From positions 6,170-70,169 of the forward strand of contig SKTZ01000014.1 of NCBI GenBank assembly GCA_007122335.1: a DNA stretch of 64,000 nucleotides, written 5' to 3'. Below, one piece after another: positions 45,866 through 54,548 of the stretch. Origin of the DNA: Bacillota bacterium (GTDB lineage Bacteria; Bacillota; Halanaerobiia; B1SED10-174). The translations under genes were made by a program, and so were the position numbers. Each line of letters begins with the position of its first letter. Within the stretch, counting starts at the first letter, position 1. The notes under the pieces were generated by a model, which did no database searches, was not told the DNA's origin, and worked only from the letters and a program-made list of their open reading frames with translations.

Positions 45866-46774
45866 TTGAAAAGAAAAATTTTGTTTGTTCTTATACTTTT
45901 ATTCTTGTTTTCTGGTTTGGCCCAGGCCAATGGAGGAGTAACTTTTGGAGGAAGCAGGCTAGTTGCTCCCGGTGAAACTATCCGGGGGGATATAGTAATT
46001 TTTGGAGGAAGGGTTGAAATCCTGGGGACTCTTGAAGGAGACCTGGTCTGTATCGGGGGAAATGGTACTGTCGAAGGAAGAATAACCGGTGATCTGATAA
46101 GTGTTGGCAGCAGCCTTAACCTGGAAAGAGGTGCCAGCATTGGGGGAGACCTGGTTCAGGTTGGAGGGTCAATCTGGAGAGATCAGGAAGTTCAGATTGG
46201 GGGAATTTTTCGAACTGTAAGTTATATGGAGCCATTTCGGATAGGATTTCCGGGTTGGGTTTTTCGACCGGTAATATCCCTCTGGGGTTCTGTTTTAGGC
46301 TTTTTTTACCAGTTACTGTTTACCCTGCTTGTTGCCTTTTTATTTGCGAACAATGTAAAGGGAGTGGCTTCAACAATTAAAGGGGAGTGGGGATTATCTC
46401 TCCTGGTGGGCTTCCTTGGGTTTATTCTCCTGTTTCCAGTAGTAATTTTCCTTTTAATAACCATCCTTGGTATTCCCCTGGCTCTGGTGGTTTTACTCGG
46501 TTATTACCTCGCGGTTATTCTGGGCCAGGTAGGCATATTTTACATCCTGGGCGATTGGTTAATGGATAGATTTGGGCGGAAGCAGGATAAGGTGATTGGT
46601 ACTGCTGTAGTAGGACTGCTGGCAATATTTATTATCCGCCTGCTGATCAGAATAATCCCTTTTATTGGCGGACCTATCCACATGGTAATAATGGCTCTGA
46701 TTTACATGCTTGCTCTCGGAGTTACCCTTAAGAGCCGTTTTGGAACCAATAAACCCTGGATTGCCCGGGGTTAA
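45866..46774 (+). CDS. membrane protein with signal peptide, beta-helical (bactofilin/DUF4097-like) repeat domain and C-terminal 4-TM domain
   Basis: 302-aa ORF. After the signal peptide MKRKILFVLILLFLFSGLAQA there are repeating G-D-[LIV]-x-[IV]-x-G-G units (GDIVIFGGRVEILGTLEGDLVCIGGNGTVEGRITGDLISVGSSL...). The C-terminal half is hydrophobic. Confidence 0.55.
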   Translation: MKRKILFVLILLFLFSGLAQANGGVTFGGSRLVAPGETIRGDIVIFGGRVEILGTLEGDLVCIGGNGTVEGRITGDLISVGSSLNLERGASIGGDLVQVGGSIWRDQEVQIGGIFRTVSYMEPFRIGFPGWVFRPVISLWGSVLGFFYQLLFTLLVAFLFANNVKGVASTIKGEWGLSLLVGFLGFILLFPVVIFLLITILGIPLALVVLLGYYLAVILGQVGIFYILGDWLMDRFGRKQDKVIGTAVVGLLAIFIIRLLIRIIPFIGGPIHMVIMALIYMLALGVTLKSRFGTNKPWIARG

Positions 46775-46820: not shown

Positions 46821-46897
46821 TGGTCGGAGCGCCGGGATTTGAACCCGGGACCTCTGCCTCCCGAAGACAGCGCGCTTCCAAGCTGCGCTACGCTCCG
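46821..46897 (-). tRNA. trnP: tRNA-Pro (anticodon CGG)
   Basis: The reverse complement folds as a canonical cloverleaf. The parts are: acceptor CGGAGCG/CGCTCCG, D-arm GCGC-AGCTTGGAA-GCGC, anticodon arm CTGTC-TTCGGGA-GGCAG with anticodon CGG, T-arm CCGGG-TTCAAAT-CCCGG, discriminator A, and an encoded CCA. Confidence 0.9.
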
Positions 46898-46960: not shown

Positions 46961-49678
46961 ATGCTAAAAACATTTCTTTTTTCCCTGGTTTTGCTGGTTG
47001 TTTTTGTTCAGCCTGCCCAAGGTGCCATGTTTTTTAACTGGCAGCAAATAGACACCGAGAATTTCAGGGTTTATTTTCCTGCTGGCCTGGAAGAACAGGC
47101 CAATCAGGCTGCAGAAATTGCGGAAGAAGTTCATGTTGAACTTACGGAGTTTTTAAGCTACGAACCTAAGAAAAAGACCGATCTAATTTTATATGCCCAA
47201 AGGGATACTGCTGGAGGGTGGGCAGATATTTCCTGGGATCGCCGGATCGGGATTTATCTTGGGCATTTTAACCTTGAGGGTGGCTTCGGTGAATATGAAA
47301 GCATGCTCCGGTTAATTATTGCCCATGAATATGCCCATATTCTCCAGCTTTCCCTGCCCCCGGAAAATCTTTTGCCCTGGGGTTGGCTTTCCCAGATATT
47401 CCCTCCGATTTTATTGCAGCCTTACTGGTTTATTGAAGGTTTTGCTATGACCGTGGAAACAGACCTTACCGAAGGGGGTAGGGCTGATAGCCCGATTATT
47501 GGAGCAATGCTTAGAGCCCAGGCTGATGCTGATGAAATGTACCATTTTGACCAGATCCAGGGGTTGTACAACCTGGAGTCCTGGCCCGGGGCAATGGCCG
47601 CCTACAATTATGGAGCCTGGTTTATGGCCTACCTAATTGACGTATATGGCGAAAACCTAATAGTTGATCTGGCACGAAAATATCCGGAAAATCCTTTAAG
47701 GGGTATTTCCGGCTGGTTTAATTATCTGACCGGCGATAACCTGCAGGAGGTTTATCTTGAATGGCAGGATAAATTAGATTCAATTGGCAGAGTTGAGCAA
47801 CCCGAAACCATTACTTCTGCCTGGGGTTACAATCAAAACATTGCTACCTGCCCGCAAACAGACCGGGTATTGTATTTTCATCAGGGGGAGCTTTTTCCTT
47901 CCCTGAGGCTTTCTGATGGAGAAAAGGATGAACAGGTCCTTGCTGTTGCCGGGATTAATGGGGGTAGGCCCACATGGTCGCCTGATGGAGAAAAAATAGC
48001 CTTTGCCCGGCTGCGGCCGGAAGGCTTAAAGGAAATGTACCACCAGATTTTTATATTCGATTTAGACACCGGGGAACAAAAACAAGTAACCTCCGGTCGG
48101 GGCGGGAGGCATCCTGCCTGGTCTTCCCAGGGGGAATTGGCCTATGTAGAAAATTTAATGGGCGGGAACCAAATAGTACTCTACGATGTGGAAACCGGGC
48201 AGAAGGAAACCCTGTTTTTTAGCCGGCCCGAAATTGATTACGGATCGCTGGCCTGGGATCCCGCAGGTGAAAAACTTGCTATTGAGGTCTGGATAGAAGG
48301 GGGCGCAAGGGGGATTTGGATTTACGATACAAAAAGCGGCTACCTGGAAACTCTTTTTGCCCGGGAGGGAAATTTCCATCGGCCAGTCTGGTCGGCAAGT
48401 GGGTCCTTCCTTTATACAGTAGGCAGTATTGGAGGGCCTCCCCAAATATTTGCCTATAATTTGGAATCGGACAGGTTCTGGCAGGTCACATCCAATCCCT
48501 ATGGAACTTTTGATATTGGCCCGGGAATAGAAAAAGACTTCTTTGTAGTTTTAACTTCCCGGGGTTATCAGATTAAAGAGGAAAAAATTGGGTTAGAGGA
48601 ATGGCTTCCCAGACAACTAACCCGGTTTGTTCCCCGGGAAGATGAAGAGCTCAGGGAAATGAGGGAGGTGCGGAGGTCAAGTCGCAACTATCCCCTTTTC
48701 AGCAGATTAACACCCCGCCTGGTTATTCCCTGGTCAGGAGAAGGAGTTGTGGGGGTGAATATGTTTGGCTGGGATCCCCTGCAACTGGTTTACTATGAAG
48801 CCAGCATTGTTTCTGGTCTTCCCATTGCTCCCGCTTACAACATCTATACTGGTATTTATCCCGACCAGGGGAGGTTCGGTTTAATTGAAACCCTGCTGCA
48901 GGGTGGGTGGACTTCCCGGGTGGGTCCCGTTGAATACGAGAACCCCCGCCGGTTTGACGGGGGACAATTTCTCCTGCATATCCCGGTGCAGCGGGAATAT
49001 TTATCAGCCGGAACCCTGAGGCTGGGAGGGGGAGCATATTTCCTTCCTGACATGGTGTATCCAGGTGTTCACCTGGGTTGGACCCAGCAGTTTATCCGGG
49101 GCCAGGACAGGCTTAACGTAAATTTTGCCTACGCCCTTGATGGATCTACCTGGTATGTTGAAGGCTGGGATACTCAGTTGATCGGGCAGGGGCTAATGCG
49201 GATCAGCCCCTGGCGGGGAAGTAGCATTGGGTTATCCACTCTGGCCGGGGTAGCCCCCGGAGACTACCAGGTCAGCACCTCCATGAGGAGTTTTTCCGCT
49301 CCCCTGCAGGGGGAATTGATCTGGCTCAATCGGGTGGAATTTACCCAGCGGATCCTTGATATTAAAAGGGGAAGAGGGGAAATACCGATTTTTCTGGATA
49401 GTCTACAGGCCCGCCCCTATTTTGAAGCAGGTTCAGCCTGGGCAGGCGATATCCAGTTGAACAGGTACGGGGGAGGCCTGGAAGGAATTCTTGATGTAGA
49501 ACTGCTCCAGGGCCGGATCCCTCTTGAATTGGTTGGAGGCGTATCCTACAACACTGAGGAAAACCTGAGGGCCTACTTCCGCTTTAACCTGGGAGGTTTT
49601 GTCAGGACGATTGGTGAAAAGTACTTTTCTAGCCCCGTCGAGCAAGATAATTTAAAACCAGATAGAGACCAACAATAA
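46961..49678 (+). CDS. secreted multidomain protein: zincin-like metallopeptidase (HEYAH) + TolB-like beta-propeller + C-terminal Gly/aromatic-rich beta domain
   Basis: 905-aa ORF with signal peptide MLKTFLFSLVLLVVFVQPAQGA and an HExxH motif (IIAHEYAHILQ) plus a downstream E. Four or more PD40/TolB-type blades are present (PTWSPDGEKIAF, PAWSSQGELAYV, LAWDPAGEKLAI, PVWSASGSFLYTV). The C-terminal roughly 350 aa is beta-strand-like and Gly/Tyr/Trp-rich. Confidence 0.6.
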   Translation: MLKTFLFSLVLLVVFVQPAQGAMFFNWQQIDTENFRVYFPAGLEEQANQAAEIAEEVHVELTEFLSYEPKKKTDLILYAQRDTAGGWADISWDRRIGIYLGHFNLEGGFGEYESMLRLIIAHEYAHILQLSLPPENLLPWGWLSQIFPPILLQPYWFIEGFAMTVETDLTEGGRADSPIIGAMLRAQADADEMYHFDQIQGLYNLESWPGAMAAYNYGAWFMAYLIDVYGENLIVDLARKYPENPLRGISGWFNYLTGDNLQEVYLEWQDKLDSIGRVEQPETITSAWGYNQNIATCPQTDRVLYFHQGELFPSLRLSDGEKDEQVLAVAGINGGRPTWSPDGEKIAFARLRPEGLKEMYHQIFIFDLDTGEQKQVTSGRGGRHPAWSSQGELAYVENLMGGNQIVLYDVETGQKETLFFSRPEIDYGSLAWDPAGEKLAIEVWIEGGARGIWIYDTKSGYLETLFAREGNFHRPVWSASGSFLYTVGSIGGPPQIFAYNLESDRFWQVTSNPYGTFDIGPGIEKDFFVVLTSRGYQIKEEKIGLEEWLPRQLTRFVPREDEELREMREVRRSSRNYPLFSRLTPRLVIPWSGEGVVGVNMFGWDPLQLVYYEASIVSGLPIAPAYNIYTGIYPDQGRFGLIETLLQGGWTSRVGPVEYENPRRFDGGQFLLHIPVQREYLSAGTLRLGGGAYFLPDMVYPGVHLGWTQQFIRGQDRLNVNFAYALDGSTWYVEGWDTQLIGQGLMRISPWRGSSIGLSTLAGVAPGDYQVSTSMRSFSAPLQGELIWLNRVEFTQRILDIKRGRGEIPIFLDSLQARPYFEAGSAWAGDIQLNRYGGGLEGILDVELLQGRIPLELVGGVSYNTEENLRAYFRFNLGGFVRTIGEKYFSSPVEQDNLKPDRDQQ

Positions 49679-50219
49679 TCAGGGCAAAAGGCCACAGTAG
49701 ATCAAAACGCTGTAAAATAGCAACCGGAAGAATTTCTGTATCAAGTAGATAAATTAAAACTCCCGTTCCGAATAGTATGGCCGCGGGATAAAAAGGCCAG
49801 TTCCGCCTTTTCTTTTCCTGAAAGGTGCGGGTATGAAAAATAAAAACCAGAACAAAGGCCAGACTCAAAAGGTGAAAAAAAAGAGTCTGGTCTAAAAATG
49901 GGGGTAGCTTTACCTGGCGGGGAAGATAAGTTGTTCCAGCCAGGGAAAGAATGATTAGCCCGGTTACCAGGTAACCCTGGGTTCTGGCTGAAAGCAGATA
50001 AAAAAGGAAAAATAAAAAGGAAGATAAAAAAAGGAAGGTTTCGGTACTGTATAGAAAGGGGAATTGTTCCCAGAGGCCCAGGGTTCTGCTGAGCAAAAAA
50101 AGACCGGAAAACAAAAGGAAAATTCCAATGTAAGGGAGTCTTAATCCTTTGGCCAAAACAACCATTCCTTTCAAAAACATGTTACTAATAAGTTTACTTC
50201 CCTCACCTTGTAAAGTCAA
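49629..50219 (-). CDS. hypothetical polytopic membrane protein (about 6 TM)
   Basis: 196-aa ORF with six strongly hydrophobic segments. It overlaps the 3' end of the convergent 905-aa gene by 50 nt. The start is probably an internal Met (MFLKG.. or MVVLAKG..) because pcrA starts 27 nt beyond the annotated start. Confidence 0.45.
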   Translation of the reverse strand: MTLQGEGSKLISNMFLKGMVVLAKGLRLPYIGIFLLFSGLFLLSRTLGLWEQFPFLYSTETFLFLSSFLFFLFYLLSARTQGYLVTGLIILSLAGTTYLPRQVKLPPFLDQTLFFHLLSLAFVLVFIFHTRTFQEKKRRNWPFYPAAILFGTGVLIYLLDTEILPVAILQRFDLLWPFALIIVGLYLVLNYLARRG

Positions 50220-50246: not shown

Positions 50247-52400
50247 ATGAGTATACTGAAAAATTTAAACCCGCCACAAAAAAAAGCGGTTATCCATGGT
50301 GAAGGACCTTTATTGATTCTCGCTGGAGCTGGTAGCGGAAAAACCAGGGTTTTAACCCACCGTATTTCCTACCTGGTAGGGGAAAGGGGAATTTCTCCAA
50401 AAAACATAATGGGTGTTACCTTTACCAATAAAGCGGCGGAAGAAATGAAGAACAGGATCAGAAGATTAATTGGCCTGGGAACTGCTGATCTATGGATGGG
50501 AACCTTCCATGCTCTCTCGGTTCGAATCCTCCGCAGGGAGGCGGAAAGAGTCGGTTTTTCCAGCAACTTTGTAATATATGATACCCAGGAATCAAGGACC
50601 CTGATAAAAAACATAATGAAAAAAATTGGTTTGGACCCCAAGGAAATTAACCCGGCTGCTATCCAGCAGGAAATATCCCGCTTGAAAAGCGAACTAAAAG
50701 AACCCCACCAGATGGGCTCCACTGTTCACGATTTTTTCCGGGAAAATGTATACAAAGCTTACACCGAGTACCAAAAAGAACTCAAAAAAGCCAATGCCAT
50801 GGACTTTGATGACCTGATTATGATTACAGTAAAACTCCTTTTAGAGGAGCCAGAAATCCGTTCCCGTTACCAGTCCAGGTTTAGATATATCCTCGTTGAT
50901 GAGTACCAGGATGTTAATCATGCTCAGTACCGCTGGATTAACCTGCTCGCCGGTGACCAGGGCAACCTTACCGTAGTTGGAGATCCGGACCAGGGGATTT
51001 ATGGTTTCCGGGGGGCTGATATTAACAATATATTGAGCTTTGAAAAAGATTATCCCCGGGCCGAGGTTATTAAACTGGAAGAAAATTATCGTTCCTACCA
51101 GAATATTTTAAGCGGTGCACAGGGGGTAATTGCAGCGAATTCCCGCCGCAAGGAAAAAGATCTGTGGACAAGCAAGGGCAAAGGAAACCCCATAAACCTT
51201 CGGGAGTTTTACAACGGTGAAGAAGAAGCTGCCTTTATTGCCCAGGAGGTTCAGAATCTGCAGGAGAAGGATATCCTGGCCCGAGATATTGCTGTTTTTT
51301 ACCGGACCAACGCCCAGTCCCGGATCATAGAAACAGCCCTGACCCAGGCGGGAATCCCCTATAAAATAGTGGGGGGCATGAGGTTTTATGATCGGAAGGA
51401 AATTAAGGATCTTCTGGCCTACCTTAAGTTGATATATAACCGGGACGATACCATGAGTTTTTTGCGGGTGATTAACATGCCGCGCCGGGGCATCGGCCAG
51501 GCAACTATTGAAAAGGTGGAAAAAGAGGCCCTGCAGAGGGGAACGACTCTTTACAGGGTTTTAAGCCAGGTCGAGGAATTTTCCCTGGGCCCCCGGCAGC
51601 GAAAATCCCTGGCTGGTTTTTACAGGATGATTGAAGAATTGAGGAGTGAAGCTGAAAAACTGTTTCCTGGAGATCTATTGCAGGAAATCCTGGAAAGGAC
51701 AGGTTACTGGGCAGAACTTGCTGAAAGTGACAGCATTGAAGCCCAGGTCCGAATGGAAAATATCCAGGAGCTATTCAATGTATTGGAGGATATCCCCGAG
51801 GAAGGCTGGGAAGGTTTAGAAAACTTTCTTGCAGAAGTTTCACTGCTTTCCGACATTGACCTTTACGAGGAAGAACAGGGTGGTGTAACTTTAATGACCC
51901 TGCATACCGCCAAGGGTTTGGAATTCCCTGTTGTTTTTATGGTCGGCATGGAAGAGGGTTTTTGTCCACATAATAGGTCCATGGAAAATCCAGAAGAAAT
52001 AGAAGAAGAACGACGGTTATGCTATGTTGGTATGACCAGAGCCCAGGAAATATTATATATAACCTGGGCTCAGCAAAGGCAAATCTTTGGGACTAATGTT
52101 TTCCGGAAACCGTCCCAGTTTTTGCAGTGTATACCAGCGGAGAACTGTGCTGAAGTGGAAGAAGAGGAAAAGATTGATGATTTTCTTTCGGGAGAAAATA
52201 AAGGGGAAGAAAAAGAGGCCCCGGATGAGCCCCGGCACAACAATTTTGTTCTGGGACAGAAAGTTCGCCACCCCAAGTGGGGAGTGGGCCGGATTGTCAA
52301 CAAGACAGGAACGGGAAAGGATTTAAAACTTACTCTGGCTTTCGAGGGTCAGGGATTAAAAGAAATTTTAGTTGAATATGTAAACCTGGAAAAAATTTGA
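50247..52400 (+). CDS. pcrA: ATP-dependent DNA helicase PcrA (UvrD family)
   Basis: 717-aa ORF with the full SF1 motif set (AGAGSGKT, DEYQD, TLHTAKGLEF, VGMTRA). Confidence 0.93.
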   Translation: MSILKNLNPPQKKAVIHGEGPLLILAGAGSGKTRVLTHRISYLVGERGISPKNIMGVTFTNKAAEEMKNRIRRLIGLGTADLWMGTFHALSVRILRREAERVGFSSNFVIYDTQESRTLIKNIMKKIGLDPKEINPAAIQQEISRLKSELKEPHQMGSTVHDFFRENVYKAYTEYQKELKKANAMDFDDLIMITVKLLLEEPEIRSRYQSRFRYILVDEYQDVNHAQYRWINLLAGDQGNLTVVGDPDQGIYGFRGADINNILSFEKDYPRAEVIKLEENYRSYQNILSGAQGVIAANSRRKEKDLWTSKGKGNPINLREFYNGEEEAAFIAQEVQNLQEKDILARDIAVFYRTNAQSRIIETALTQAGIPYKIVGGMRFYDRKEIKDLLAYLKLIYNRDDTMSFLRVINMPRRGIGQATIEKVEKEALQRGTTLYRVLSQVEEFSLGPRQRKSLAGFYRMIEELRSEAEKLFPGDLLQEILERTGYWAELAESDSIEAQVRMENIQELFNVLEDIPEEGWEGLENFLAEVSLLSDIDLYEEEQGGVTLMTLHTAKGLEFPVVFMVGMEEGFCPHNRSMENPEEIEEERRLCYVGMTRAQEILYITWAQQRQIFGTNVFRKPSQFLQCIPAENCAEVEEEEKIDDFLSGENKGEEKEAPDEPRHNNFVLGQKVRHPKWGVGRIVNKTGTGKDLKLTLAFEGQGLKEILVEYVNLEKI

Positions 52401-52404
52401 CCGG

Positions 52405-52436
52405 GAGGGCAGCTTTATGCTGCCCTTTTCTTATTT
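52405..52436 (+). terminator. rho-independent terminator after pcrA
   Basis: GGGCAGC-TTTAT-GCTGCCC followed by TTTTCTTATTT. Confidence 0.85.
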
Positions 52437-52547
52437 CGAGAGTTTTTGGTGAAAGAAAGGAATCGGAAGTTTATCAGAAGAAATAAGAAGTTGAGGTAAA
52501 AATTATTCTCGCATGGTTTTTGTTTTTGTTAAAAGGGTTAAGAATAA

Positions 52548-54548
<2,001 letters not shown>

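Follow-up and report, generated by a model that had tools for sequence, protein, structure and literature searches.

A predicted zinc peptidase, a TolB-like propeller and an Omp85-type barrel in one divergent protein of a Halanaerobiales bacterium

A 64,000-nucleotide stretch of a Bacillota bacterium (contig SKTZ01000014.1 of assembly GCA_007122335.1, positions 6,170 to 70,169 of the forward strand; hereafter the window) carries at 46961..49678, on the plus strand, a complete gene with an ATG start and 905 codons plus stop, exactly the open reading frame (ORF) that an earlier note, made from the letters and an ORF list, had pointed out. We read its product, with a probability of roughly 0.6, as a divergent member of the WD40-like subfamily of Omp85 proteins, in which a C-terminal barrel would be inserted into the outer membrane, a zinc peptidase would face the periplasm, and a beta-propeller would control the access of substrates to it. 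From N- to C-terminus, the 905-amino acid (aa) protein is composed of a signal peptide, a gluzincin domain, a propeller, an Omp85-type barrel, and a polar tail.

A GGAGG-like ribosome-binding site precedes the start by about 10 nt, and a protein (P0001) encoded on contigs of soda-lake sediment metagenomes (JGI SL_8KL_010_SED and SL_9KL_010_SED), with the same flanking genes, is 100 % identical to the window protein. As identical or 77-90 % identical proteins are encoded in collinear Halobacteroidaceae contigs, 46961..49678 is not a chance ORF. The full-length AlphaFold2 (AF2) model has a mean predicted local distance difference test score (pLDDT) of 87.3 and a predicted template modelling score (pTM) of 0.88, with pLDDT falling below 50 only at residues 882-905.

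Domains of the 905-aa protein

The C-terminal domain (aa 584-880, 48710..49600; all features of the protein lie on the plus strand) is predicted to form a 16-stranded Omp85-type outer-membrane beta-barrel, as judged from two models, Foldseek, and a chain of profile comparisons. Sixteen long strands of 7-23 residues between aa 584 and 876 are present alike in the full-length model and in a model of the barrel alone (pLDDT 85.3, pTM 0.78), and 49 of the 50 top PDB matches retrieved by Foldseek with the latter are Omp85/TpsB barrels, among them FhaC (E 1.7e-5), Deinococcus radiodurans BamA, Sam50, TamA, E. coli BamA, and CdiB. At the profile level, an alignment of 33 full-length relatives (A1) matches TamA barrels in the PDB with an E-value of 2e-14, and Pfam scans of these relatives detected PD40 in 32, Peptidase_MA_2 in 15, BSP peptidase in 12, and Omp85 (PF01103) in 9 (best E 4e-15). 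Furthermore, hhalign comparisons restricted to the C-terminal domain connect the clade of the window protein to an intermediate group (98.9 % probability, E 4e-17, 297 columns), and this intermediate group to the Pfam-positive one (98.4 % probability). The earlier note had considered that this region might simply consist of more propeller blades; both models and the fold matches instead indicate a 16-stranded barrel.

Two motifs of the barrel can be followed through 152 relatives aligned to the family profile, on which all conservation counts given here are based. The long loop 6 (765-785, between strands 11 and 12) shows in the family a column of L, V, I or M followed by Arg (147/152), Gly (148/152), and Tyr or Phe (145/152), and reads M-R-S-F in the window protein (49283..49294), a variant of the (V/I)RG(Y/F) motif. 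Strand 13 (809-828) carries Y-F-E-A-G (49418..49432), a variant of (F/G)xDxG, at columns occupied by F (130) or Y (11), any residue, D (132) or E (19), any residue, and G (136); the changes from F to Y and from D to E are conservative and recur, as the counts show, in 11 and 19 relatives. The final strand, YFRFNLGGF, resembles a beta-signal, and this is where the earlier note was right in describing alternating aromatic and hydrophobic residues; the true C-terminus is different, as a polar tail of 25 residues (aa 881-905, 49601..49675), coinciding with the low-confidence end of the model, follows in place of the terminal aromatic residue of a beta-signal. Of the relatives, 120 (79 %) terminate in F, W or Y in the manner of classical outer-membrane proteins, and polar tails of 11-33 aa after the last strand are found in the close Halanaerobiales-type clade formed by the window protein and P0002-P0006. 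Likewise, the Gly/Tyr/Trp-rich C-terminal region of about 350 aa that had been described exists and is rich in Gly (12.9 %), but its Tyr and Trp are no more frequent than in the N-terminal domain. A homologue from an unclassified Arg/Ala-rich “Bacillota bacterium” metagenome-assembled genome (MAG) of an anaerobic digester (L011, 9788-12838) displays canonical TVRGF and FLDAG motifs and a C-terminal SSEF, and nonetheless lacks a PF01103 match.

With its 16 strands, a long loop 6 bearing Arg-x-aromatic between strands 11 and 12, acidic-x-Gly on strand 13, and an aromatic-rich last strand, the predicted barrel is reminiscent of BamA and TamA. Unlike these, the window protein has no POTRA domain, its N-terminal module consists of an enzyme and a propeller, its gene is located outside the BamA/TamB/Skp cluster, and the similarity is at the level of profiles only. 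The linker between propeller and barrel (48617..48709; one short helix at 562-568 and the first barrel strand from 584, according to DSSP) comprises about 31 aa and could not accommodate a POTRA domain, which takes about 75 aa; the Pfam families listed for the relatives do not include PF07244.

The N-terminal domain (aa 24-285, 47030..47815) was assigned to the gluzincins, clan MA(E), by searching its profile against PDB sequences and by the Pfam matches of its relatives, in agreement with the Peptidase_MA-like domain that had been noted around IIAHEYAHILQ. The zinc-binding and catalytic motif HEYAH within this sequence (H122, E123, H126; 47324..47338), the third zinc ligand E159 in WFIEG (47435..47437), and the adjacent G160 are invariant in all 152 relatives, so that the downstream Glu, whose lack across orthologues the earlier note had named as a refutation of its reading, is kept. 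Y215 (47603..47605), a candidate for stabilising the transition state, is a Tyr in 150 of 152. In the full-length model, the HExxH and E159 regions are carried by helices 115-130 and 155-169, respectively; with HExxH and a Glu as third ligand on the following helix, the domain is a gluzincin, and the joint conservation of HExxH, the third-ligand Glu, and the Tyr suggests that it is active as a metallopeptidase.

The best match of the domain profile (residues 24-285) was the peptidase domain of the M9 collagenase ColG (E 5e-5), in an alignment limited to the catalytic subdomain (profile positions 100-243), followed by M1 aminopeptidases (E ~1e-3). In this alignment, HEYTH and WFDEGTAEF of ColG fall onto HExxH and WFIEG of the family, so that E159 corresponds to the Glu of WFDEG, which we take to be the third zinc ligand as in M9 collagenase structures, and Y215 pairs with the tyrosine of FYNYG and by analogy probably stabilises the transition state. 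The likeness to ColG and to M1 gluzincins thus comprises HExxH, the Glu downstream in W-F-x-E-G, and an aligned conserved Tyr, at E-values that are marginal (5e-5 to 1e-3). In contrast to M1 aminopeptidases, the GxMEN exopeptidase motif was found in none of the 152 relatives (searched as G.MEN in the first 350 residues); a canonical M1 identity was therefore rejected, and an endo- or oligopeptidase is more likely. The differences to ColG and the M9 family are equally clear: about 95 residues precede HExxH, no collagenase activator, collagen-binding or PKD accessory domains are present, and the catalytic domain directly follows the signal peptide and is itself followed by the propeller. Upstream of HExxH, the family shares the conserved motif D-x-x-D-x-A-N-G-x-A.

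Between peptidase and barrel, a TolB-like PD40 beta-propeller (aa 286-552, 47816..48616) was recognised by Pfam, PDB sequence search, Foldseek, and DSSP. In the window protein, no Pfam family other than PD40 exceeds the threshold (one repeat at 333-353, E 6e-7), and TolB was retrieved from PDB sequences at E 3e-8 (residues 333-465). In addition, Foldseek with the full-length model placed TolB first (E 3e-12, target-normalised TM score 0.43-0.51), followed by S9 peptidase propellers and tricorn protease, the top 50 being propeller matches only. The earlier note had counted at least four blades; the propeller itself is borne out, and the 23 short strands that DSSP assigns in the model between residues 289 and 551 raise the number to about six blades of four strands each, like those of TolB. 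The protein is not a TolB orthologue, as NCBIfam TIGR02800 scores 66.9 bits against an equivalog cut-off of 343.15 and aligns with the propeller part only. TolB of the Tol-Pal system is the best match in sequence and fold to a PD40 propeller of about six blades, but its N-terminal alpha/beta domain is missing from the window protein. Similarly, the S9 enzymes (prolyl oligopeptidase, DPP-IV) and tricorn protease, both also among the matches, combine a propeller with a peptidase, which in S9 is a serine hydrolase and not a zincin.

The N-terminus, MLKTFLFSLVLLVVFVQPAQG followed by AMFF, has the appearance of a Sec signal peptide (aa 1-21, 46961..47023) that would be cleaved by signal peptidase I, in line with the cleavable signal peptide of the earlier note: it is the sole strongly hydrophobic 19-mer in the protein and ends in a predicted A-x-G cleavage site (AQG before A). 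A helix at residues 2-23 of the full-length model covers it, and hydrophobic N-termini are found throughout the family alignment. As it contains no cysteine and thus no lipobox, a lipoprotein was rejected.

A widespread family and its relation to WD40-like Omp85 proteins

The three-domain layout is far from restricted to the window protein. Homology search yielded 66 relatives, of which two (P0002, P0003) are 77-78 % identical, three (P0004-P0006) about 39 %, and many proteins of 900-1080 aa 20-30 %. When the A1 profile was compared with 1.84 billion cluster representatives, the best 150 matches all had E-values below 1e-208, nearly all of them from end to end, with lengths of 890-1250 aa; among these best 150, at least about 145 diverged clusters match end to end across the three domains. 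Thus, the layout defines a large and widespread family, and the earlier view of an unusual architecture does not hold. Nor are orthologues confined to diderm Firmicutes, a point that the earlier note had proposed to check: carriers among species-representative genomes include Halanaerobiaceae, unclassified Bacillota MAGs, Nitrospirota, Geobacter and other Desulfuromonadales, Thermoanaerobaculia, and Gammaproteobacteria, and the full-length alignment joins the window protein to relatives with PF01103, PF07676, and PF13485. In databases, members appear as “hypothetical”, “Tol biopolymer transport system component”, or “peptidase S9”.

This architecture is an already catalogued one and can be called neither novel nor unusual. 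Ten subfamilies of the Omp85/TpsB superfamily were distinguished by Heinz and Lithgow (2014, Front Microbiol 5:370, PMC4104836), and in the one termed “WD40-like”, PF01103 is combined with PD40 repeats; Table S3 of that study gives, for these members, best fold matches to BamA (4k3b) and TamA (4c00), to TolB (2w8b, 2ivz), and to aminopeptidases (1z5h, 4kxd). The authors also suggested that the propeller might act like a fused BamB, and accepted POTRA-less subfamilies of Omp85. The group was summarised in 2024 as having “divergent WD40 and peptidase domains” (PMC11358297), and no experimental study of it was found in the literature searched. In the window protein, an aminopeptidase-like domain and a PD40/TolB-like propeller come before the barrel, which places the protein in this WD40-like subfamily; common to both are the same three parts, the lack of POTRA, and a distribution across many diderm phyla.

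Several differences can be named. The 2014 set was defined via a detectable Omp85 barrel sequence, whereas the window protein escapes PF01103; the examples consulted are non-Firmicute, whereas the window protein stems from Halanaerobiales; and it has MRSF in place of VRGY/F, YFEAG in place of FxDxG, a compact barrel of 297 aa, and a polar C-terminal tail. The new part is modest, namely a strongly diverged Halanaerobiales member that is missed by Pfam Omp85 and Peptidase_MA_2, with changes in the barrel motifs and a tail at its C-terminus. Since the barrel escapes the Pfam model, censuses based on PF01103 would undercount such Omp85 paralogues in Terrabacteria, and at least some Halanaerobiales would carry, besides BamA, a second barrel of the Omp85 superfamily that standard domain models miss. 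More generally, the family joins an Omp85 barrel, over a wide range of bacteria, to a propeller and to a zinc peptidase that is conserved and seemingly active, and its topology and substrates, once known, would add a functional class to the superfamily, as PlpD did.

Placement at the outer membrane and competing explanations

Between 36.9 and 58.9 kb, the window is collinear with contigs of Halobacteroidaceae MAGs (nucleotide identity of 87.7 % to L001, and 75-77 % to L002 and L003), and the host is a soda-lake diderm Firmicute of the lineage of this family, which belongs to the Halanaerobiales within the Bacillota. An outer membrane has been retained in a small number of Firmicute lineages, the Halanaerobiales among them, and the central machinery that builds such membranes consists of Omp85 proteins. 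For Halanaerobiales, an outer membrane with lipopolysaccharide (LPS), a BamA/TamB/Skp cluster, and a single BamA homologue have been reported, and homologues of BamB-E are absent in diderm Firmicutes (PMC5007114). The gene described here sits outside this cluster. For a diderm host, the earlier note had offered an outer-membrane protein as one of two options, and this is the option that we follow.

After Sec export and cleavage of the signal peptide, the 16-stranded barrel would be inserted into the LPS outer membrane, and the gluzincin and the six-bladed propeller would most likely be located on its periplasmic inner face, because Omp85 barrels, with their even number of strands, have the N-terminal start of the barrel at the periplasm. 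PlpD of Pseudomonas aeruginosa, the only enzyme-carrying Omp85 protein whose topology was tested, indeed keeps its non-POTRA N-terminal enzyme domain in the periplasm, as established experimentally (PMC11116518). Like the window protein, PlpD fuses an Omp85 barrel to an N-terminal hydrolase, and its periplasmic enzyme is the basis of the favoured topology; it differs in being a homodimeric lipase with one POTRA, where the window protein has a zincin and a propeller and no POTRA. The propeller might serve as a substrate filter or binding platform, by analogy with prolyl oligopeptidases, DPP-IV, and tricorn protease. The zincin would thereby be limited to unfolded, extended or short polypeptides at the outer membrane, for instance misassembled envelope proteins or peptides, and the function would be the turnover of envelope proteins or peptides at this site. 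Outer-membrane insertion, periplasmic orientation, gating by the propeller, and the class of substrates are the elements that we infer in this reading; the gene, its domains, the invariance of the active site, the fold and homology of the barrel, and the diderm nature of the host are what the analysis shows.

A number of observations weigh against it. The Foldseek E-values of the barrel are modest (1e-5 to 1e-3, with TM scores of about 0.5), and, as canonical Omp85 members were part of the AF2 multiple alignment, the barrel model and the homology to Omp85 are not entirely separate lines of evidence. PF01103 does not match the window protein even at E <= 1, a profile of the close clade alone retrieves only TolB and no Omp85 structure from the PDB, and the direct hhalign comparison of the barrel of the window clade with the Pfam-positive group is not significant (0.5 % probability, or 69 % with three more intermediates); the barrel homology of the window protein therefore rests on the intermediate group and on predicted structure. 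Loop 6 keeps the Arg and the aromatic residue, but its Gly is replaced by a Ser that occurs in only 3 of 152 relatives, and substrates of the barrel assembly machinery (BAM) do not typically extend beyond the terminal aromatic strand, as the window protein does with its tail of 25 aa. Over the gluzincin region, the window protein itself has no Pfam match, Peptidase_MA_2 included. Finally, gene context gives no functional clue and does not discriminate among the readings, and topology, enzymatic activity, and substrates are predicted ones for every member of the family.

The strongest competitor, though unlikely, is that the barrel exports its own zincin-propeller module to the cell surface, in a manner similar to type Vd or two-partner secretion, where extracellular proteins would be captured and cleaved for nutrition. 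TpsB transporters such as FhaC, which transport their partners across the outer membrane, are indeed among the best barrel matches, and the 2014 study raises such an option for enzyme-carrying Omp85 proteins (PMC4104836). The amino acid composition could also be read in this sense: the mature protein contains about 1.9 % Lys, compared to 5.8 % in 16 other window proteins, which may suit exposure to a brine of pH ~10, and the depletion in this extracytoplasmic protein may be an adaptation to soda-lake pH; it is shared by the closest relatives and not by those from other phyla (8-12 % Lys, for example, in P0011 and P0012). However, the depletion peaks in the barrel region (48626-49600), whose 325 residues include 1 Lys versus 28 Arg, and is less marked in the propeller (3.8 % Lys), so that the N-terminal module is not singled out. 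Furthermore, the folded module, with its roughly 530 aa, is large for a 16-stranded barrel to let through, the linker is short, and the prototype PlpD retains its enzyme domain in the periplasm (PMC11116518). Surface exposure of the protease, as in the surface-anchored reading of the earlier note, is possible, but another topology is favoured here.

Somewhat less likely still, the protein might act as an assembly factor that inserts or translocates other proteins like BamA or TamA, with the propeller as a built-in scaffold resembling BamB and the zincin exerting quality control or chaperone activity on stalled substrates like BepA. The barrel is homologous to those of BamA and TamA, the loop-6 and strand-13 motifs important for BamA function are kept family-wide, diderm Firmicutes have no BamB-E homologues (PMC5007114), and BepA is a zinc metalloprotease acting at the BAM complex of E. 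coli. In the clade of the window protein, however, these motifs are weakened, and the C-terminal tail adjoins the seam between strands 1 and 16; moreover, the POTRA domain is missing, the zincin is an M1/M9-like gluzincin and not an M48 peptidase as BepA, and the gene is not part of the Halanaerobiales BamA/TamB/Skp cluster.

Comparably doubtful is the idea of a self-contained proteolytic machine of the outer membrane, whose barrel would recognise beta-signals or open laterally and hand stalled or misfolded proteins, or peptides crossing the barrel, via the propeller to the zincin. If true, it would unite a quality-control unit resembling BamA, BamB, and BepA in one polypeptide, and it would represent a second, cryptic Omp85 paralogue for envelope biogenesis in Terrabacteria that lack BamB-E, such as Halanaerobiales, with bearing on the evolution of the Firmicute outer membrane.

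Last, a soluble secreted or S-layer-associated protease, with extra propeller blades or a non-membrane beta-sandwich at the C-terminus, is largely refuted and very improbable, as the missing Pfam Omp85 match and the polar tail in place of a terminal aromatic residue, which would suit it, are opposed by 16 strands of 7-23 residues that do not form four-stranded blades, by fold matches to Omp85/TpsB barrels, by the homology chain to Pfam Omp85-positive relatives, and by the lack of any SLH or S-layer family match in Pfam scans of the window protein and the 33 relatives, for which reason the S-layer idea of the earlier note was dropped and an S-layer or SLH protein rejected.

Neighbouring genes

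In the window, the protease gene is surrounded by genes for an FAD oxidoreductase, an MFS transporter, a LiaF-TM-like membrane protein, PcrA, and LigA, none of which has a relation to the envelope. A comparison of the neighbourhoods of 34 loci revealed no gene partner conserved across phyla, synteny being limited to lineages. The LiaF-TM-like protein is encoded convergently at 49629-50219 on the minus strand, and in the ORF list its 3' end overlaps the final 50 nt of the protease gene, the region coding for the polar tail; the same overlap appears in the gene calls of the metagenome contigs. Directly downstream of the locus lie pcrA, which encodes a UvrD-type helicase with a PcrA tudor domain, and then the NAD-dependent DNA ligase gene ligA (together 50247-54548, plus strand), a gene pair typical of Firmicutes and in agreement with the taxonomic assignment.

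On the other side, the sole tRNA gene of the window, tRNA-Pro(CGG) at 46821-46897, is indeed adjacent to the protease gene, as had been noted. It lies divergently on the minus strand and forms its own transcription unit, with a promoter-like site at 46940-46912 (score of 10/12, with a TG extension) and a GC-rich terminator hairpin of 12 bp at 46811-46784. On these grounds, it is merely a positional neighbour, and a functional link was rejected. In another Halanaerobiales MAG (L004), a tRNA of 96 % identity occupies the same position upstream of the homologue. Next to it, an ORF of 302 aa (45866-46774, plus strand) has no Pfam match and consists of an N-terminal signal-like segment, Gly/Asp-rich repeats with GGxV...GDL motifs, and a polytopic-looking C-terminal half; its position is kept in all soda-lake contigs with the protease gene.

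In Halanaerobiaceae MAGs and two unclassified Bacillota MAGs (L005, L008, L034, L011, L012), a gene for a radical SAM/SPASM protein of 493 aa, absent from the window locus, occurs within a neighbourhood of 7-9 kb around the homologue, and in L005 (5039-6520) it lies just downstream of it. The presence of this neighbour may stem from a common ancestry of the Firmicute copies, or it may point to a connection with peptide maturation.

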